Of a stretch of 64,000 nt of DNA, positions 31,589 to 63,752 are shown piece after piece (the first letter of the stretch is position 1; each line of letters opens with the position of its first letter). The DNA is from Eledone cirrhosa (lineage: Eukaryota). The notes below the pieces were generated by a model. It did not search any database. It saw only the letters and a list, made by a program, of their open reading frames with translations, and was not told the origin of the DNA. The stretch is from positions 49,290,001 to 49,354,000 of the forward strand of contig OZ024751.1 in NCBI GenBank assembly GCA_964016885.1, in the 5' to 3' direction. Position numbers and translations under genes: made by a program.

Positions 31589-34500
31589 CTACAGGCTTAT
31601 GTAAAGAGAAGGCCCATTCACACGGGCCATTCTCGCCACTTTCACCCACCTTTCATAAAAACGACTGGGGTGCAGCACCTCTCTCTCCATCCTGATCCTT
31701 CTTCCGAAATGATATCGGAAGAAACGGACCAGTTGTTGGCCAGACGCGTCCACCATACAACCTCTTTCGCCATGGCTATTACGCACAGAAACACCGCCTC
31801 TGCTTCATCTTTGAAGGGGGGAGGCGGCTTGATCATTACAATAGACTCGGTGGTCAACCGGATCGGTCCCACCCTTGACAGCAGTTGTTCGACATAGCCC
31901 CACAGATCGGCTACGCCCGAGCAGTGTACCAATGCGTGTGCAACGGTTTCCTCGTCGCACACGCATCTGGGACAGATCTTTTTGGCGGGGTCCCTACCCG
32001 GGCGCCCGTGTCTGTAGAGCCTTTCTCGAACGGGTAAAGCCCCTCGGTAGCACTGCCAGGCCAGGGACTTCTGGAAGTTGTCCATAGGTCCCGGGCTGAA
32101 TGTCCTACCGAACAGGCTGGCCAGTTCGTCCTCCTCCATGTCTAGGGCTTCTCCGAGGGCGTCGTCGCACCTGCTGCGTACCAGCCCTCTATAGAATGTA
32201 GCGGTGGAGTCTCCACTGATAACCGGATCCGCCTGCCAGAGGGCGGTGAGCGCCTGGGCACACTCAGTGTGCCAGGCGCCCAGTTTTCTCGGTCTTTGCT
32301 TGACCCAGGATTGCAGTTCGGTGAGTGAGACGAGTCTGGGAAAGGTTCGTCTCACAAACGAGGCCCACACCGGTTGTCCGGTGAGGAATACGTAGAGGTG
32401 CCGTAGCCTTAATGCGTGTTTACGCATCATTAGCCACGGCATCCCCAGCCCTCCTTTCGAAGGGTGTTGACAGCAGATGGATCTCCTCACCATAGGAGCC
32501 CGCCCCTTCCAAAGGAGTTGGAAGAGCGCGCGCTCCATCTTGGTGAGGGTTTCCCTTGGGCAGGGCACTACGGTCAGGCGGTAGTAGATGACGGACGCTA
32601 TATAAGTGTTCGCCACCTCCGCCCGACCTTTCAGGGATAGTTTGCAACTGGCCCACTTCTGGGTCAGTGCAAACACCCTGTTCGTAACCTCCGCCCAGTT
32701 TTTCTCCACCTGGAGGTCCGGTCCGAACCAGACCCCGAGCAACTTCACCGGGCCCTCCGTCCAGCGTCCGACGACGCCATCGGAGGGCATCGGTCTGCCC
32801 CTCCACGTGCCGAGTTGCAAACCGATCGACTTGTCCCGGTTCAGCTTAGCCCCTGTGAACTTTTCGTACTCCTCCAGTAAGGTGCCGACCGCCTCGATTT
32901 CGGAGGCCGTCGACACCATTACTGTCACATCATCGGCGTAGGCTGACACCGCTTTCCGCAATCCCGGTTCCAAAGGGATGCCCTGCAACAACTCCAACTT
33001 CCGCAGTAGTGGCTCGAGAGTCAACACATACAGAAGGGAGGAGAGAGGGCACCCTTGTCGGATGGACCGCGCGATTTTGAACGGCTCCGAGAGGTAGCCG
33101 TTCACCTTGACCCTAGAGCAGATGCGGCTGCTGTGCATAGCAGTGATCCAGCCCCTGAAAACGGGTCCGAAGCCTGCCGCCGCTAGCACCGCATCCAGGT
33201 AACCATGGTCGACCCTATCGAACGCCTTAGATTGATCCAAGTTGATCAGAGCCCCACCAAAGCCGGGTTCGTTCCCAACCCTCTCTATGATGTATCGCAT
33301 GAGGTGGAGGTTGTCATGGATGGACCTGGACGGGATAGCGCATGTCTGCGCATCTCCCACCAGGTTGCCCACGACAAGCGCCAACCTCTTTGCTAGCACC
33401 TTGGCCAAAATCTGTAACTCTGTATTTAGCAGAGTTATGGGCCTGAAGTTACTTATTTCGTCCCCCTTGTTCTCGTCCTTCCTCACTAGCGTGACTACGC
33501 CCTTGGTCACAGTACAGGGAATTCTCCCGTTCTGTTGCCAGTTGCAGTAGACCGCCTCGAGGAGATCGGGGAACAAGTCCGGCATAGCTAGATATAATTC
33601 GTAAGGAAGACCATCGAGACCCGGGGATTTGCGTTTGCCGCATTGGCCCAGCACGTCCTCTATCTCAGCGGCCGAAATCGGCTCCTCGCAAGACTTCGCC
33701 TCCCTGTCCGAGAGGCGCGGCAGGCCGTCGAGGTATGGACCGAAGTCCACGTTTCCAACCGGCTCCCCGCCCCTCCCGAACAGTCGGGCAAAGTGCCTTT
33801 GAAAGGCCTCACACATCTGCTTAGGCTCAAGAATCGCCCGTCCATCCAGGTCTCGCAAAGACCGGATGGTGGATTTAGTTCCACTGTTGGCCTCTGTCAC
33901 GCGGGCCCAGCTAACAGCTTTGGCCCCCTCGTTCCCTAGAGCACGTATTTTACTTCGGACAACGCAGCCTTCGTGCTTCGCGTCGAAAAACTGGCTCAAA
34001 GCCGTTCTCGACGCTAGCACTCTGGCCACGTCGCCGCTTCTAATTGCCTCTTCTACTCTATCTATTAGCTCCCTTTCCTTCCTATTCCTATCCGCAGCTA
34101 GAACCTTACTAAATTCAATCGAGACTACTCTAATCTCTCTCTTTAGAGATACCCACCACCTGCTGTTGACGATCGCTCCAGTCAACCGTTCCTTAACTAA
34201 CGTACTAATCCGATTCCTGTAGGCTCTACTTGCCGGCAAGGACAAGTTGAGCTTCCAGTAACCGGGGCCCTGTCTATGCGTTCTATCAAGGTTGACCATG
34301 CAGGTCACCAACTTGTGGTCTGAATAGCCAACCATGAGCATTTCTGGACAACTTAAAAAGTCCCTGTCCTTATTTCTAACTAAAAATCTATCTAGGTACG
34401 ATCTAGATGATCCGCTGCGATTTGACCAAGACCAGGTTGGCACCGTCGGAAAATCTAGTCGAAATCTATCGGCCAGGTCAAATCGGCCGAGTAACCCCTT

Positions 34501-34995
34501 GAGGCTGTTGCACCCCTCTCTATCGGGACATGCCCCTGCATAGTCCCAACGTGCATCCAGGATACCATTCCAATCCCCCACTAAAAGCAGGGAACGGGAC
34601 GTCCCTAGAAAAGACTCCAGACGCTGGAAAAAGTCGGGCCGCTCTGTCCCAAAAGGGGCATATGCGGCTATCAGCCTAAGGGCTCTACCTTCACCACTGC
34701 CAAGGTCCAGCACCACCAGTCGACCCCCTGGGTCCAAGTGAACTATCTGTGTTGCAAGGCCCATATGTTTTTGCAGCAGAACGACAACCCCACCCCCACC
34801 TCCGGGCTGACAGAGAGATGCGTGCATCTCAAAGTCGTCAAAGGTGGGGGCTAGCTGTCGCATGCTGCTGATCCGGGCCTCGCAGATAACCATCACATTT
34901 ATAGATTGTGACCTGAGGTCATTTAGAAGCATTGCTTGCTTCCAAGACGAGCCCAGGCCACGCGCATTTAGACACCCTACTCTTAGCACAGCCAT
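31589..34995 (-). CDS. LINE ORF2: apurinic-like endonuclease, reverse transcriptase and CCHC zinc finger (frameshift near 31740)
   Basis: APE motifs CLNARGL, CEARI, GDWN, LDRFL, SDH. RT motifs KSPGLDG, RPITLLN, QGCPLS, YADD. Zinc finger CPRC...HALVHC. First ATG at 34995; the true C-terminus continues in the 31589..31786 frame. Confidence 0.95.
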
Positions 34996-35019
34996 GTTGG
35001 TGGTAAAGAGAAAAGGCAC

Positions 35020-36662
35020 TTACCTCTCTGCGTCCCGGGAAACGGGCCGCTCAATTTCCATGCTGGTTGGGGATGGGTTGTTGGGTGGGGTTGTGGTTTG
35101 TGGAAGTGAAGGGGCATCGGTGTGTTGTGGGGTTGGGGTGTTTGTCGTTGAGTGGGTGTCTGGGTGAGGTGGGGGGGTGAAATTTTTTAGGAGGACGCGG
35201 TTGATTGGTTTGGCGCAGGGGGGGCCCACGTCCTCCGTGAAATTTATTTTCAGTGTTTTGTACAAGTGCATTGGGACTTTTATCATTTTCAAATGAGGTA
35301 GTCCCACAGCAGTTATAAAGTTTGGCCCTTCGGTTTGGACCGAAGGGTTTGCTGAAATTGTTTTCCGTAATTCTTTGTTGTCTGTGTTCATGTATGTGTA
35401 TTGTAATGTCTTTTTTTGTGTAGCAGTTAGTGTTGTGTGACAGGGAGGGGTGGTTTGTGTGTAGTTTGTGTTCTCTTGGGGGGGATTAAAGTTAACATGT
35501 GTGTCTGTGGTGCGTCTCCTCTTCTTTCTTTTTACTTGTTGGAAGGGATCTTTTTCGTCTTGCGACGAAAGAGGTTCGTCTTCCTTGTTGGGTGGGAGGG
35601 GTATGTTTTCTGGTAGTGTTTGCGGTGTGCGTGTTTTTGTATTTGTTTTGGGTGGGGAGGGATTGGGTGGGACAGTATTCTGTGTTATTTTTTCACGTGT
35701 TTGTTGTTGTTGTTGTTGTGGTGGTGGTGGTGGGGTTGTTGGTTTTTGTTGTTGTTGTGGTTGTTTTTGTTGTTGTAGTTGGGGTGGTGTTGGTGTTGGT
35801 AGCAGTGTTTTTTTCTGTGTGAGCTGGGGACAGGCAGCCCTCAGGTGACCTCTATTGCCACAGAGGTAACAGGAGGGACGCCTACCCTCCACAATAATGT
35901 TGAGGTGGGTACGGTCATCCAGCATGACGCGCTCAGGGATTTGGGCGATGCGTTCTGGCCTTATTTGGGTCAGAACTTCGATGCTCGTTCCACTGAACGC
36001 GTCGCCGGATGCCTTCCCTATTGAGATGAGGTTGTCCTCGTCTAAATTGAGGAAACCGGTTAGTAACCACCAGTAGTTTATGTTTGGGGTGATGGTGGTT
36101 ATCCATATCCTCTGGGTTTTTTTACCCATGTAGGTAAGGAAGAAGGTGTAGTGTGTGGACCGAATTGGCGACACAGAGTATTTTTTTGCCGCCAATTCGT
36201 CTTTCATCAATATGGATAAACTCCCATAGAGTTTATCCTTTTGTATGAAAGTGATGTCTCTCATCGCGTCTTTCAAGACTAACTGAGTTTCCGCTTGAGA
36301 TGGTTGCGCTGGTTTCTTTGTTTTATTTAAAATTGTTCGGAATACGACAGTTCGTAATTCCGTCTGTCTTTTTAGCTCCGGAGGTGAATGTATAGAAAAC
36401 GATCCGTTTTCGCCAAAAGACACATATTTCTTGGCTTTTTCCAGCATTTCTTTTGCTTTTGAAATATCTTCCAGCACATAAGCGACTGATAATTTAGCCG
36501 TTTGTGCAAAAGATATTTTGTTTTCGTTTTGGATATTAGTATTGTTTTGTTTCTCGTCGTTTGAGTTGTTTTCATCTTTGTTGTTGTTGTTGTCTTTCTC
36601 GTTTCGTGTGTGGATACTTGTGACGTTTGTGTTGTTGTTGTTTTTGTTGTCTTTATTGTTGC

Positions 36663-36693
<31 letters not shown>

Positions 36694-36870
36694 GTTTTCA
36701 AATTCTTGTGTAGTTGTGGCTACATCTAGTGGTCGGTCAACAGGTGAAGACAATTCTTCCTCTCTCTGACCTCTGCCTTTGGCATCTGCTGCTGTGACAG
36801 TGGCAGGGGGAAGCTGTGAGTATGACTTCCCCTTTCCTTCTTTGATTGATGGTGAAGATGATTCAGCCAT
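35020..36870 (-). CDS. LINE ORF1 (gag-like nucleic acid-binding protein with CCHC zinc knuckle)
   Basis: Open frame of ~616 aa from ATG 36870, with CYLCGNRGHLRAAC, a basic KRKKRRR patch and N-, Q- and P-rich low-complexity tracts. Lies directly upstream of ORF2. Confidence 0.9.
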
Positions 36871-38017
36871 TTTTCTCAAAATAGGGTTTTTCGAAGTTTT
36901 TCGAAAGATAAAATGTTCACAATACTATTTCGCCCAAAGGCGCAGAATATTTTGAGAGACCGACCAGATCAAAATTTGACCTGGCAGTCCCTCTACAAAA
37001 TGATACAAAAATGAAAGTTTACAGTTTACAATTTCCGTATGAATTTAAACAAAAACTTACCGAGCGAGCTCAGCACATGTGTCCATCAGATAGAGAGATA
37101 GATATAGATAGATAGATAGATAGATAAAGAGAGAAAGATATACATATATATATATATATATGTATATCTTTCTCTCTTTATCTATCTATCTATCTATCAA
37201 TGTATCTATCTATTTATCTATCTATCTATCTGCCTAACTACCTACCTACCTACCTACCCACCTACCTATCTATATATATATCTACATCTCTATCTACCTA
37301 TCTATCTATCTACTCACCCATATATTGGAATGTAACTCGCCATTCACCCATCCACAACCACTAAACAACAACAAACAGCAGGTAACTATCTACAAAACGA
37401 CAACACTACTCATTACACAACACAACCTCATCACACAACAAACAATCACCAATCACACCAAACTACCAAAACAAAAAAAACACCCCGCCACACATCACAA
37501 ACGGTCACCACTATCACACACCTCACCACCTAACGGCAGGGCAAGCCACCAAACAACACTCCAACACCTATAACAGCTACGTCCTCAGCACTAAACAACA
37601 ACAACAACAACAACAACGACGACGACGACATGCTCCTTCAGAAAAACGACATCACGACCAACCACAATACACCGCCGCCAATCACAACGTAAGAGTCACA
37701 AAACAACCCACGCCCCGCCTAGCCAACTGATCGTAACCAAATACAATATCGTAATTTCTCCGCACCCACAGTCTCACATCTTTCAGACAATGCCTATAAA
37801 TCAGTGAGGGAGAAACACGCCTCCTTTCACAGATAAACTTCTTTTCTCCAACTTTCTATATTCTTATAATCTAAAGATTAAATGGCGCGTGAAATGTTCC
37901 AATTGTTTTTACAGACTGTCGGTATCTCTGAAATACAGGCAGAGGAAATATAGAGATTCGGGTAACAAGTAGTCTATCTTACTTCATTGACCAAATTAAG
38001 TACTTTGTTTCCGTATC

Positions 38018-56620: not shown

Positions 56621-56909
56621 TTTATGTGTGTGAATGTTTATGTGTGTGTGTGTTTCTGTATGTGTGTGTGTGATCGCACACAGTGACAAACAGCGCATTT
56701 TGCAGTATTAAACATTGTATGAAATCTTTCTTAGGTCAGGTGTGTTTATCAATATTTGTATTAGTGAGTTCATGAGCAGATTTGTGTGTATATGTATGTG
56801 AGTAATTATTTCATGTGGAGGAGAGAGTTCGCCGTATGGCAGATATTACTGCAATAAATTCAAAGTCTCAATATCCGTGCAGACGATCGCTATATATATA
56901 TATATATAT

Positions 56910-59900
56910 GAATATAGACATAGAATATTCGAAAATATTCTGTATGTTTATAATAAACATTTTGAAGACCTAATCGCTATAGAATAGAATACGTCACGTA
57001 TTACAATTAGATTCTCGATAAAAGCAAGGGAAGTAATCTACGCGTTTCATTCTCGTTAGAAATCATCAGGACTACATATCCAGTGCTTTTATCGAGAATG
57101 ACACAGCTAGAGACTTATAGAATACTTAGCTGTGTACAGGAACTGGTTTGAAAGAGCGGTTGCCGGTCCGGCGGAAATTAGAAATTGGAATAAATGCTCT
57201 GAAATAGCGATATATATGTGAATATAGACATAGAATATTCGAAAATATTCTGTATGTTTATAATAAACATTTTGAAGACCTAATCGCTATAGAATAGAAT
57301 ACGTCACGTATTACAATTAGATTCTCGATAAAAGCAAGGGAAGTAATCTACGCGTTTCATTCTCGTTAGAAATCATCAGGACTACATATCCAGTGCTTTT
57401 ATCGAGAATGACACAGCTAGAGACTTATAGAATACTTAGCTGTGTACAGGAACTGGTTTGAAAGAGCGGTTGCCGGTCCGGCGGAAATTAGAAATTGGAA
57501 TAAATGCTCTGAAATAGCGATATATATGTGAATATAGACATAGAATATTCGAAAATATTCTGTATGTTTATAATAAACATTTTGAAGACCTAATCGCTAT
57601 AGAATAGAATACGTCACGTATTACAATTAGATTCTCGATAAAAGCAAGGGAAGTAATCTACGCGTTTCATTCTCGTTAGAAATCATCAGGACTACATATC
57701 CAGTGCTTTTATCGAGAATGACACAGCTAGAGACTTATAGAATACTTAGCTGTGTACAGGAACTGGTTTGAAAGAGCGGTTGCCGGTCCGGCGGAAATTA
57801 GAAATTGGAATAAATGCTCTGAAATAGCGATATATATGTGAATATAGACATAGAATATTCGAAAATATTCTGTATGTTTATAATAAACATTTTGAAGACC
57901 TAATCGCTATAGAATAGAATACGTCACGTATTACAATTAGATTCTCGATAAAAGCAAGGGAAGTAATCTACGCGTTTCATTCTCGTTAGAAATCATCAGG
58001 ACTACATATCCAGTGCTTTTATCGAGAATGACACAGCTAGAGACTTATAGAATACTTAGCTGTGTACAGGAACTGGTTTGAAAGAGCGGTTGCCGGTCCG
58101 GCGGAAATTAGAAATTGGAATAAATGCTCTGAAATAGCGATATATATGTGAATATAGACATAGAATATTCGAAAATATTCTGTATGTTTATAATAAACAT
58201 TTTGAAGACCTAATCGCTATAGAATAGAATACGTCACGTATTACAATTAGATTCTCGATAAAAGCAAGGGAAGTAATCTACGCGTTTCATTCTCGTTAGA
58301 AATCATCAGGACTACATATCCAGTGCTTTTATCGAGAATGACACAGCTAGAGACTTATAGAATACTTAGCTGTGTACAGGAACTGGTTTGAAAGAGCGGT
58401 TGCCGGTCCGGCGGAAATTAGAAATTGGAATAAATGCTCTGAAATAGCGATATATATGTGAATATAGACATAGAATATTCGAAAATATTCTGTATGTTTA
58501 TAATAAACATTTTGAAGACCTAATCGCTATAGAATAGAATACGTCACGTATTACAATTAGATTCTCGATAAAAGCAAGGGAAGTAATCTACGCGTTTCAT
58601 TCTCGTTAGAAATCATCAGGACTACATATCCAGTGCTTTTATCGAGAATGACACAGCTAGAGACTTATAGAATACTTAGCTGTGTACAGGAACTGGTTTG
58701 AAAGAGCGGTTGCCGGTCCGGCGGAAATTAGAAATTGGAATAAATGCTCTGAAATAGCGATATATATGTGAATATAGACATAGAATATTCGAAAATATTC
58801 TGTATGTTTATAATAAACATTTTGAAGACCTAATCGCTATAGAATAGAATACGTCACGTATTACAATTAGATTCTCGATAAAAGCAAGGGAAGTAATCTA
58901 CGCGTTTCATTCTCGTTAGAAATCATCAGGACTACATATCCAGTGCTTTTATCGAGAATGACACAGCTAGAGACTTATAGAATACTTAGCTGTGTACAGG
59001 AACTGGTTTGAAAGAGCGGTTGCCGGTCCGGCGGAAATTAGAAATTGGAATAAATGCTCTGAAATAGCGATATATATGTGAATATAGACATAGAATATTC
59101 GAAAATATTCTGTATGTTTATAATAAACATTTTGAAGACCTAATCGCTATAGAATAGAATACGTCACGTATTACAATTAGATTCTCGATAAAAGCAAGGG
59201 AAGTAATCTACGCGTTTCATTCTCGTTAGAAATCATCAGGACTACATATCCAGTGCTTTTATCGAGAATGACACAGCTAGAGACTTATAGAATACTTAGC
59301 TGTGTACAGGAACTGGTTTGAAAGAGCGGTTGCCGGTCCGGCGGAAATTAGAAATTGGAATAAATGCTCTGAAATAGCGATATATATGTGAATATAGACA
59401 TAGAATATTCGAAAATATTCTGTATGTTTATAATAAACATTTTGAAGACCTAATCGCTATAGAATAGAATACGTCACGTATTACAATTAGATTCTCGATA
59501 AAAGCAACTGAAGTAATCTACGCGTTTCATTCTCGTTAGAAATCATCAGGACTACATATCCAGTGCTTTTATCGAGAATGACACAGCTAGAGACTTATAG
59601 AATACTTAGCTGTGTACAGGAACTGGTTTGAAAGAGCGGTTGCCGGTCCGGCGGAAATTAGAAATTGGAATAAATGCTCTGAAATAGCGATATATATGTG
59701 AATATAGACATAGAATATTCGAAAATATTCTGTATGTTTATAATAAACATTTTGAAGACCTAATCGCTATAGAATAGAATACGTCACGTATTACAATTAG
59801 ATTCTCGATAAAAGCAAGGGAAGTAATCTACGCGTTTCATTCTCGTTAGAAATCATCAGGACTACATATCCAGTGCTTTTATCGAGAATGACACAGCTAG

Positions 59901-62154
59901 AGACTTATAGAATACTTAGCTGTGTACAGGAACTGGTTTGAAAGAGCGGTTGCCGGTCCGGCGGAAATTAGAAATTGGAATAAATGCTCTGAAATAGCGA
60001 TATATATGTGAATATAGACATAGAATATTCGAAAATATTCTGTATGTTTATAATAAACATTTTGAAGACCTAATCGCTATAGAATAGAATACGTCACGTA
60101 TTACAATTAGATTCTCGATAAAAGCAAGGGAAGTAATCTACGCGTTTCATTCTCGTTAGAAATCATCAGGACTACATATCCAGTGCTTTTATCGAGAATG
60201 ACACAGCTAGAGACTTATAGAATACTTAGCTGTGTACAGGAACTGGTTTGAAAGAGCGGTTGCCGGTCCGGCGGAAATTAGAAATTGGAATAAATGCTCT
60301 GAAATAGCGATATATATGTGAATATAGACATAGAATATTCGAAAATATTCTGTATGTTTATAATAAACATTTTGAAGACTTAATCGCTATAGAATAGAAT
60401 ACGTCACGTATTACAATTAGATTCTCGATAAAAGCAAGGGAAGTAATCTACGCGTTTCATTCTCGTTAGAAATCATCAGGACTACATATCCAGTGCTTTT
60501 ATCGAGAATGACACAGCTAGAGACTTATAGAATACTTAGCTGTGTACAGGAACTGGTTTGAAAGAGCGGTTGCCGGTCCGGCGGAAATTAGAAATTGGAA
60601 TAAATGCTCTGAAATAGCGATATATATGTGAATATAGACATAGAATATTCGAAAATATTCTGTATGTTTATAATAAACATTTTGAAGACCTAATCGCTAT
60701 AGAATAGAATACGTCACGTATTACAATTAGATTCTCGATAAAAGCAAGGGAAGTAATCTACGCGTTTCATTCTCGTTAGAAATCATCAGGACTACATATC
60801 CAGTGCTTTTATCGAGAATGACACAGCTAGAGACTTATAGAATACTTAGCTGTGTACAGGAACTGGTTTGAAAGAGCGGTTGCCGGTCCGGCGGAAATTA
60901 GAAATTGGAATAAATGCTCTGAAATAGCGATATATATGTGAATATAGACATAGAATATTCGAAAATATTCTGTATGTTTATAATAAACATTTTGAAGACC
61001 TAATCGCTATAGAATAGAATACGTCACGTATTACAATTAGATTCTCGATAAAAGCAAGGGAAGTAATCTACGCGTTTCATTCTCGTTAGAAATCATCAGG
61101 ACTACATATCCAGTGCTTTTATCGAGAATGACACAGCTAGAGACTTATAGAATACTTAGCTGTGTACAGGAACTGGTTTGAAAGAGCGGTTGCCGGTCCG
61201 GCGGAAATTAGAAATTGGAATAAATGCTCTGAAATAGCGATATATATGTGAATATAGACATAGAATATTCGAAAATATTCTGTATGTTTATAATAAACAT
61301 TTTGAAGACCTAATCGCTATAGAATAGAATACGTCACGTATTACAATTAGATTCTCGATAAAAGCAACTGAAGTAATCTACGCGTTTCATTCTCGTTAGA
61401 AATCATCAGGACTACATATCCAGTGCTTTTATCGAGAATGACACAGCTAGAGACTTATAGAATACTTAGCTGTGTACAGGAACTGGTTTGAAAGAGCGGT
61501 TGCCGGTCCGGCGGAAATTAGAAATTGGAATAAATGCTCTGAAATAGCGATATATATGTGAATATAGACATAGAATATTCGAAAATATTCTGTATGTTTA
61601 TAATAAACATTTTGAAGACCTAATCGCTATAGAATAGAATACGTCACGTATTACAATTAGATTCTCGATAAAAGCAAGGGAAGTAATCTACGCGTTTCAT
61701 TCTCGTTAGAAATCATCAGGACTACATATCCAGTGCTTTTATCGAGAATGACACAGCTAGAGACTTATAGAATACTTAGCTGTGTACAGGAACTGGTTTG
61801 AAAGAGCGGTTGCCGGTCCGGCGGAAATTAGAAATTGGAATAAATGCTCTGAAATAGCGATATATATGTGAATATAGACATAGAATATTCGAAAATATTC
61901 TGTATGTTTATAATAAACATTTTGAAGACCTAATCGCTATAGAATAGAATACGTCACGTATTACAATTAGATTCTCGATAAAAGCAAGGGAAGTAATCTA
62001 CGCGTTTCATTCTCGTTAGAAATCATCAGGACTACATATCCAGTGCTTTTATCGAGAATGACACAGCTAGAGACTTATAGAATACTTAGCTGTGTACAGG
62101 AACTGGTTTGAAAGAGCGGTTGCCGGTCCGGCGGAAATTAGAAATTGGAATAAA
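56910..62154 (-). mobile_element. Retrozyme-like tandem array, block 1: 17 x 310-bp monomers, hammerhead on the minus strand
   Basis: aatatagacatag recurs every 310 bp from 56911 to 61871. Units are identical except for a few substitutions (59508-59509, 60380, 61368-61369). Confidence 0.92.
57011..57099 (-). ncRNA. Type I hammerhead ribozyme of monomer 1 (repeats every 310 bp, 17 copies)
   Basis: Minus strand: attctcgataaaagca ctggatat gtagtc-CTGATGA-t ttct aacg agaa t-GAAACGCGTA-gattac ttccct tgcttttatcgagaat. Predicted cleavage between 57039 and 57038. Confidence 0.88.
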
Positions 62155-63157
62155 CATACAGAATATTTTCGAATATTCTATGTCTATATTCACATATATA
62201 TCGCTATTTCAGAGCATTTATTCCAATTTCTAATTTCCGCCGGACCGGCAACCGCTCTTTCAAACCAGTTCCTGTACACAGCTAAGTATTCTATAAGTTT
62301 CTAGCTGTGTCATTCTCGATAAAAGCACTGGATATGTAGTCCTGATGATTTCTAACGAGAATGAAACGCGTAGATTACTTCCCTTGCTTTTATCGAGAAT
62401 CTAATTGTAATACGTGACGTATTCTATTCTATAGCGATTAGGTCTTCAAAATGTTTATTATAAACATACAGAATATTTTCGAATATTCTATGTCTATATT
62501 CACATATATATCGCTATTTCAGAGCATTTATTCCAATTTCTAATTTCCGCCGGACCGGCAACCGCTCTTTCAAACCAGTTCCTGTACACAGCTAAGTATT
62601 CTATAAGTCTCTAGCTGTGTCATTCTCGATAAAAGCACTGGATATGTAGTCCTGATGATTTCTAACGAGAATGAAACGCGTAGATTACTTCCCTTGCTTT
62701 TATCGAGAATCTAATTGTAATACGTGACGTATTCTATTCTATAGCGATTAGGTCTTCAAAATGTTTATTATAAACATACAGAATATTTTCGAATATTCTA
62801 TGTCTATATTCACATATATATCGCTACTTCAGAGCATTTATTCCAATTTCTAATTTCCGCCGGACCGGCAACCGCTCTTTCAAACCAGTTCCTGTACACA
62901 GCTAAGTATTCTATAAGTCTCTAGCTGTGTCATTCTCGATAAAAGCACTGGATATGTAGTCCTGATGATTTCTAACGAGAATGAAACGCGTAGATTACTT
63001 CCCTTGCTTTTATCGAGAATCTAATTGTAATACGTGACGTATTCTATTCTATAGCGATTAGGTCTTCAAAATGTTTATTATAAACATACAGAATATTTTC
63101 GAATATTCTATGTCTATATTCACATATATATCGCTATTTCAGAGCATTTATTCCAAT
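62150..63157 (+). mobile_element. Retrozyme-like tandem array, block 2: ~3.25 inverted monomers, hammerhead on the plus strand
   Basis: taaacatacagaatatt recurs at 62151, 62461, 62771 and 63081. It is the reverse complement of block 1 and ends in (AT)n. Confidence 0.92.
62312..62400 (+). ncRNA. Type I hammerhead ribozyme (also 62622-62710 and 62932-63020)
   Basis: CTGATGA at 62342-62348 and GAAAC at 62363-62367, GUA triplet with predicted cleavage after 62372. Stem I is gtagtc/gattac, with a distal perfect 16-bp helix. Confidence 0.88.
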
Positions 63158-63184
63158 ATATATATATATATATATATATATGAA

Positions 63185-63300
63185 AAAGTAAGTCCTTCAT
63201 CAGTGACCCTCCAACCGTCCTAGGCATTTCATCGCTTTAAGGGCTATATACCTCAGGTTGGTGCGAACAACGGCTAAAAAAAGTCGTTGGGACACGAAAA
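63185..63300 (-). mobile_element. Penelope-like relic, related to 53625-53735
   Basis: Shared gtcc.tcatcagtga...ccaacc.tc...atttcatcgc...atacctcaggttggtgcga.caa...ttgggaca. Confidence 0.5.
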
Positions 63301-63752
63301 TAAAGGGGACGTTAGGGTGAACAAACAAAATGGTTTAAGCAACAGAAAGTGAGAAGAAAGAGACAAGTCCCAGATTTCTATGAATATAAACTCGGTGGAA
63401 TCGTGAACGAGAGAATAAAGACCATCAAACCTGGTTGAAATGTGAGCAAGGAAGGAATTTCGCACAGGTCTAACGGGGGGAAGAAGAAGGGGTCTGGTCT
63501 GCGAATTCGGTAAACATAAGTTCTGTGAAGTTGCAGACGAGAGAGAGAGAGAGAGAAAACAAATTCATACCGGCTTGGCAAAGAGCGCGCGAGAAAAGAA
63601 ATCGGACAGGTCAAACGGGAAGAAAGAGGAGGAAAGAGGAGGAGGAGGAGAGATAGTGACAGAGAATGAGTGAGTGAAAGTTGAGGAGGAGGCTAACAGA
63701 GAGAGAGACTGCTAGAAAGGGTAATTTTACAAAGAACGAAACAGACGGGTGG

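Follow-up and report, generated by a model that had tools for sequence, protein, structure and literature searches.

In the last 7 kb of the window, the 64-kb stretch of Eledone cirrhosa DNA analysed here, a 310-bp unit is present in both orientations. How did one tandem array come to consist of two arms joined head-to-head, each ending in TA repeats? The first-pass annotation of the window proposed that reverse transcription had been primed internally by the two ends of a (TA)n break and that the two products were joined by microhomology, in analogy to twin priming of L1. In this study, we favour, at a probability of about 0.6, the reading that the junction is the inner joint of one non-LTR retrozyme insertion: a borrowed Penelope-type reverse transcriptase (RT)-endonuclease primed on both sides of the break with one and the same RNA, probably a circle, as template, after which the products were joined by microhomology.

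The unit has a GC content of about 35%, and no open reading frame (ORF) of at least 200 amino acids lies within the array. Each unit carries a type I hammerhead motif with a short palindromic helix III, giving 20 cut-site motifs in the window. The motif consists of stem I (GTAGTC/GATTAC), CTGATGA, a stem II of 4 bp, GAAA and a stem III of 1 bp with a palindromic CGCG. Cleavage is predicted after GTA, at 62372/62373 in the copy listed in Table 1. A palindromic helix III of one pair is the form described as active in dimers (PMC4209133). A search of the unit against Rfam gave no hammerhead match, neither at the gathering score nor by E-value, and selection on the ribozyme core was not significant (0 fixed substitutions at 14 core positions among 33 variable positions, P = 0.2). 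A 24-nt core word occurs 4,101 times without mismatch in the 3.0-Gb genome; hence the family is dispersed over many loci. Tandem non-coding units of about 170-400 bp with less than 50% GC, a hammerhead in each unit and dispersal over the genome characterise retrozymes, and judged by these sequence features the 310-bp repeat is a non-LTR retrozyme.

Table 1. Features of the head-to-head array (positions in the window)
Feature	Position	Strand	Remark
Left (TA)n target remnant	56891..56908	.	final bases shared with the AT run of the unit
Left arm, 16.9 tandem 310-bp units	56900..62154	-	ribozyme sense on minus strand
Two-base variant	59508..59509	.	recurs at 61368-61369, six units apart
Head-to-head junction, 5-nt microhomology ATAAA	62150..62154	.	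left arm position 155 / right arm position 88
Right arm, 3.25 units	62150..63157	+	ribozyme sense on plus strand
Type I hammerhead motif (one of 20 in the array)	62336..62378	+	read from sequence by hand
'Tail', unit positions 140-165	63132..63157	+	at B end, missing from A end
Right (AT)n target remnant	63158..63181	.	read from sequence

The ribozyme-sense strands point outward on both sides, the left arm holding 17 predicted cut sites (minus strand) and the right arm 3 (plus strand). Orientation changes at an ATAAA shared by both arms; the left arm would run on as TGCTC, and TT would precede the right arm. Both features had been described correctly in the first-pass annotation. Among random joins of two unit positions, 0.9% overlap by at least 5 nt. 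The outer (3') end of the left arm lies at unit position 130 (139 including the AT run), referred to as site A, and that of the right arm at position 165, referred to as site B. As annotated, the right end runs into (AT)n, with only 'AT' in common between end and flank. On the left, identity to the unit is exact from 56909 (unit position 130), and 56900-56907 matches the unit's own AT run (131-139 region). The annotation had this end start at the unit's tatatatgtg fused to (TA)n; the location near position 130 and the matched AT run are borne out, the string itself is not kept (56908 is A, the unit has G). Moreover, the annotation missed that the two ends are not equivalent: A and B lie about 35 nt apart, which is the signature of the Penelope 'tail'.

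Only 8 positions in both arms deviate from the window's unit across about 6.2 kb (about 99.9% identity), and the insertion is therefore young. The repeated two-base variant in the left arm suggests duplication or conversion inside the arm after insertion. Unit counts are as assembled, and given this repetition the '17 and 3 rounds' of copying read from them earlier are not secure. The left flank is single-copy, and no empty paralogue of the insertion site was found; any target-site duplication is masked by (TA)n. Since the right flank (63183-63530) is a high-copy dispersed repeat with very high contig depth and many variants, the array may lie at the edge of another element. Elsewhere in the window, the minus strand of 31642-36924 holds a two-frame LINE: its 634-aa frame matches nothing in Pfam, and its 1,125-aa frame is uninterrupted and contains endonuclease, RT and zf-RVT domains. 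A 255-aa frame on the minus strand of 1846-2613 resembles by eye the C-terminal part of a LINE protein and has no Pfam match.

As a check, the first-pass annotation had proposed a tabulation of ends and junctions in other arrays. The first 100 core-word matches fall into 10 arrays, nine of them minus-then-plus and none the reverse. All nine are flanked by TA-rich sequence; one end falls at site A (about 128-139) and the opposite end at site B (163-170). On the forward strand, 647 A-end and 717 B-end patterns were matched, and doubling gives an estimate of about 1,300-1,400 arrays genome-wide. Pairing of the listed ends in the first 130 Mb of C1 yielded 26 A-B and 19 B-A pairs, no A-A, no B-B and 40 unpaired ends; the end pairs of C1 and 38 of the unpaired ends were included in the set of stretches that was parsed. 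A head-to-head junction is present in 81 of the 97 parsed stretches. The other 16 parsed as a single arm; one of these stops at an assembly gap and two have second arms of 11-19 nt by eye. Where both outer ends are visible (n = 77), 45 arrays are AB and 32 BA, with neither AA nor BB. Counted from the predicted ribozyme cut, site A lies at about +128 to +139 and site B at +163 to +172, with the two ends about 26-42 nt apart; only site A has real homology to (TA)n. An AT-rich or (TA)n target adjoins 149 of 152 ends; most loci were chosen by an A- or B-end pattern requiring TA, so that this share and the share of inverted arrays are biased, while the identity of the opposite end is unaffected. 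The median arm is 3.6 units long and the longest 45. L042 (a diverged relative), L053 (no unit) and L102 (a near-duplicate of L068 beside a gap) were left out, L091 and L092 were merged, L054 was counted once, and L035, L040, L096 and L124 are without one outer end. The near-identical arrays L068 and L102 (C1, about 56.26 Mb) lie beside an assembly gap and are probably a false duplication.

The two-arm A+B layout is thus the rule for the 310-bp family and the majority form among the copies examined, and the window junction is an ordinary member of its family. A head-to-head inverted arm with a tail at a single end occurs in 77/77 arrays; by geometry, the array in the window is a Penelope-type insertion. 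A diverged sister family with 68-78% identity is present at L042 1890-2370, L132 2430-2890, L143 1-205 and L158 8960-9115. It keeps unit positions 59-165, a candidate enzyme-binding signal, and its copy in L132 is likewise head-to-head, with B left and A right.

This recurrence of polarity, end sites and short microhomologies throughout the genome agrees with priming at internal sites by the two ends of a break and subsequent joining by microhomology, and speaks against a chimeric origin or an inversion at a later time. Repair typically leaves microhomology joins, which would fit an old tandem array, part of which was later inverted by recombination or repair. Random events, however, would not give one polarity and A+B ends in every one of the 77 arrays, nor does the near identity of both arms to one unit fit; an internal inversion would moreover have left a second breakpoint, which the window array lacks. 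Such an origin is extremely improbable. An artefact of assembly or library, i.e. a chimeric long read folded back on itself, is very unlikely too. Among the listed records of runs X1, X2, X3 and X22, which are filtered and possibly from another individual, none bridges the window junction, which could reflect polymorphism, filtering or error. A folded read, however, would mirror the flank and give equal ends instead of A+B, and here the flanks differ between the sides, the left one being single-copy. Contigs of X1 and X2 (one sample) contain at least 15 forward-to-reverse joints at other unit positions; hence this class of junction is present in public run data outside the assembly, although one of the two runs may be the assembly's own source.

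Microhomology is enriched at the junctions. Direct joins account for 59 of the 81 and overlap by 2.2 nt on average, against 0.76 nt by chance; none of 20,000 simulations reached 2.2. At least 2 nt are shared in 35/59 direct joins, against an expected 18%. The remaining 22 junctions hold inserts of 1-272 nt. Ten of 6-23 nt are mostly pieces of the unit and represent template jumps, some possibly parsing around variants. The longest, a GC-rich foreign sequence of 272 nt captured between the arms of L063 (1451-1722), has no Rfam match and likely stems from a template switch to another RNA. Inner ends are scattered round the unit (chi-square P = 0.17), without a pile-up at the ribozyme cut (3/162 against 5.7 expected). 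A cluster at unit position 176/177 proved to be an artefact of a subfamily variant and disappeared when locus haplotypes were used. Proximity of inner ends to the other start site is weak, with 13 A-arms near B and 12 B-arms near A against 8.8 expected each. Compared with the other arm's actual start, 13/77 inner ends lie within 10 nt (10.0 expected) and 24/77 within 15 nt (14.6 expected; P = 0.006 among several tests), so that adjacency would concern a minority of arrays at most. In L054 (2030-2207) one junction (positions 65/29, CTAAT) is present in two copies separated by a short piece, the result of local re-copying. In two arrays (L093 4957-4972, L128 2494-2509), the unit's own 16-nt inverted repeat forms the junction homology.

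Did both arms copy the same template? Among 49 loci with full units on both sides, the arms share their haplotype in 43, and the remaining 6 differ at one site; permutation of the 23 haplotypes gave a mean of 8.1 and a maximum of 17. Part of this sharing could reflect later conversion between arms. Variants are mostly fixed in all units and both arms of a locus, and 17 are fixed in a single locus only. The latter suggest passage through one unit, i.e. a monomer circle, as proposed in PMC4209133 and PMC7229834. A pure monomer circle does not explain a variant that switches partway within one arm of L104, nor single-unit variants common to both arms. These keep their register from the 3' end in L075 and L082 and are out of register in L116 and L062; with two in and two out, the register is uninformative. 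In the window array, L036, L062 and L096, variants are repeated at a spacing of 5-7 units. This suggests later duplication or conversion, and unit number need not equal rounds of copying.

Such observations bear on the possibility that the template primed at A and B was not a monomer circle but an uncut, linear multimer transcribed from a parent array, or else a pair of RNAs with a single source. The switch within L104 and the variants in register in L075 and L082 would suit a linear multimer. Stem III is minimal, so that cleavage may be weak, and in vitro cleavage is dispensable for a Penelope enzyme, with uncut RNA as the main substrate (PMC11167929). Against it stand the fixation of most variants over all units and both arms and the 17 variants private to one locus. 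Further, nested parent junctions were not seen except for the local repeat in L054, and the only junction position that recurs between loci is that of L059 and L107. These two are distant and have identical microhomology, but their haplotypes differ; the site is possibly a hotspot. We consider a linear template unlikely.

A second way to one shared template is fold-back, in which the cDNA primes itself or switches onto itself and copies back, and an endonuclease resolves the product so that the tail is left on one side. Self-priming is advanced in PMC3846280 and endonuclease resolution in PMC8557442. Fold-back yields the same head-to-head polarity and shared haplotype, and perfect palindromes form the junction in L037, L088 and a coding element, L149. 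It needs the short arm to lie inside the long arm in template coordinates, however, and therefore cannot build 11 of 76 arrays (L054 excluded), several of them short with 1.5-2.5 units per arm; the other 65 are nestable. Independent arms would give 6.7 non-nestable arrays (range 2-12), fold-back 0. Tight palindromes are also not in excess (7 junctions within 10 nt against 6.1 expected), neither end type consistently has the longer arm (A in 36 arrays, B in 41), and A and B would each have to act as both start and stop. Fold-back is accordingly improbable, and two-ended priming as such is likely.

For two-ended priming, the following course is proposed. A GIY-YIG endonuclease would cut both strands within (TA)n. 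One 3' end would prime at site A, aided by the AUAUAU run of the RNA; the other would use site B, where homology is almost nil; the positions of both ends are those observed in the arrays. Each enzyme would then copy past unit boundaries and ribozyme sites, presumably by rolling-circle copying, and halt near-randomly, as the distribution of inner ends shows. The template appears continuous, because inner ends are not piled up at the cut site and one arm reaches 45 units. That it was a circle and not a linear multimer we infer; a one-unit bottleneck predicts the 17 single-locus variants, and two-ended priming on a circle is the probable form. The cDNA 3' ends would anneal over 1-5 nt, the microhomology seen at the junctions, or after a short template jump, and be repaired. 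Unit numbers were possibly altered later.

Open frames for enzymes of the proposed kind are present in the genome. A GIY-YIG search gave 10,595 candidates, of which 150 were scored; several of these lie inside long RT + GIY-YIG open frames with a Penelope-type layout. By the description in PMC8557442, their cysteine linker reads as Neptune-like. One coding Penelope-like family has a minimal hammerhead of its own and ends at about +127 and +170 from its cut. In L149, a head-to-head pair of this family, the arms diverge 127 nt past the predicted cut and one carries about 45 nt extra. Among the first 20 minus/plus pairs of this family, selected with a word present at either type of end, the tail is on one arm in 17, on both in 2 and on neither in 1; the three exceptional pairs (BB or AA) look like compound insertions. 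In 28 stretches surrounding 12 + 16 of the 150 listed GIY-YIG hits, none of the coding elements had an end with homology to the 310-bp unit. Other hammerhead elements are present as well. L150 (4130-4325) and L151 (7005-7205) are copies of a short head-to-head element with another hammerhead of longer stem III, identical outer ends, a one-sided tail of about 70 nt and slightly different centres. L155 (7200-9900) holds a further tandem hammerhead array with a unit of about 490 bp.

Metazoan non-LTR retrozymes, as described in PMC7229834 (Cervera and de la Pena 2020) and by Li et al. 2026, likewise consist of tandem non-coding, low-GC units of 170-400 bp with a type I hammerhead each. They co-occur with Penelope-like elements, and copying of RNA circles has been proposed for them in these reports; Li et al. 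(bioRxiv 10.64898/2026.07.22.740005) derive animal retrozymes from Penelope ends. Term searches of the two main texts showed no treatment of inverted arms or of fixed ends ('inverted' occurs not once in PMC7229834 and once in Li et al. 2026, in a reference title), whereas an array of the 310-bp family usually has two arms and A+B ends. Penelope-like insertions, according to PMC3846280 and PMC8557442, share with it the head-to-head inverted, 5'-truncated copy, a 30-40 bp tail at one end, (TA)n targets and microhomology joins. Unlike Penelope-like insertions with a pseudo-LTR, the 310-bp arrays have no open frame, and a single short unit is multimerised in both arms. Inverted ends with a tail on one side are thus already known; PMC8557442 calls this structure unresolved and ascribes it to endonuclease resolution, and PMC3846280 to self-priming on an antisense template, whereas the counts obtained here favour two primers. 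Published literature, taken as freely accessible main texts, yielded no two-ended model for Penelope elements or retrozymes.

The protein of PAc, an anole Penelope element (Poseidon), was studied in vitro by Frangieh et al. 2024 (PMC11167929). As in the 310-bp family, two internal start sites bound a tail downstream of the hammerhead and the target is AT-rich; both strands are cut and extended with little need for homology, and the enzyme is predicted to be a dimer. In vitro, use of the start sites does not differ between top and bottom strands, whereas the 310-bp arrays have one site per end. The account given there proposes ordinary second-strand synthesis, does not explain inverted insertions and does not demonstrate coupled A+B priming. 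Tentatively, two-ended priming may be the normal Penelope pathway: an asymmetric dimer would load both ends of the double-strand break on two fixed sites of one RNA circle, and two polymerases would displace each other's cDNA until a microhomology join, without conventional second-strand priming. If so, inverted pseudo-LTRs, the tail on one side and the tandem arrays of animal retrozymes would share a single explanation. Previously, the role of Penelope in moving retrozymes rested on co-occurrence and phylogeny. In the young 310-bp family, many insertions are cleanly recorded, with the A+B rule kept strictly, templates shared and some arms non-nestable; they provide evidence at the level of insertions that animal retrozymes are moved by a Penelope-type enzyme. 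New are the strict A+B rule in retrozyme arrays and the shared-template and nesting tests, which favour coupled two-end priming. These records make the question of the inverted structure directly testable in the existing in vitro system.

Twin priming of L1 was reportedly first described by Ostertag and Kazazian in 2001. One primer is extended on the poly(A) tail at an L1 endonuclease site and the other at a variable internal site, the arms copy adjacent, non-overlapping parts of the RNA, microhomology is found at the inversion junction, and a minority of insertions is concerned. In 310-bp arrays, by contrast, there is no poly(A): both sites are internal, fixed and in (TA)n, the two-arm layout is the majority, and in the sub-unit arrays L055 and L088 the arms copy overlapping positions of the template. 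Both systems have in common microhomology at the junction and, as reviewed for L1 in PMC9148063, the priming of both target ends on one RNA, giving a head-to-head product with the sense strands outward. The analogy drawn in the first-pass annotation therefore holds for priming by both ends and for microhomology, and does not extend to poly(A) priming, a variable site or adjacent arms. The 310-bp insertion resembles L1 twin priming but falls outside the definition of the L1 process.
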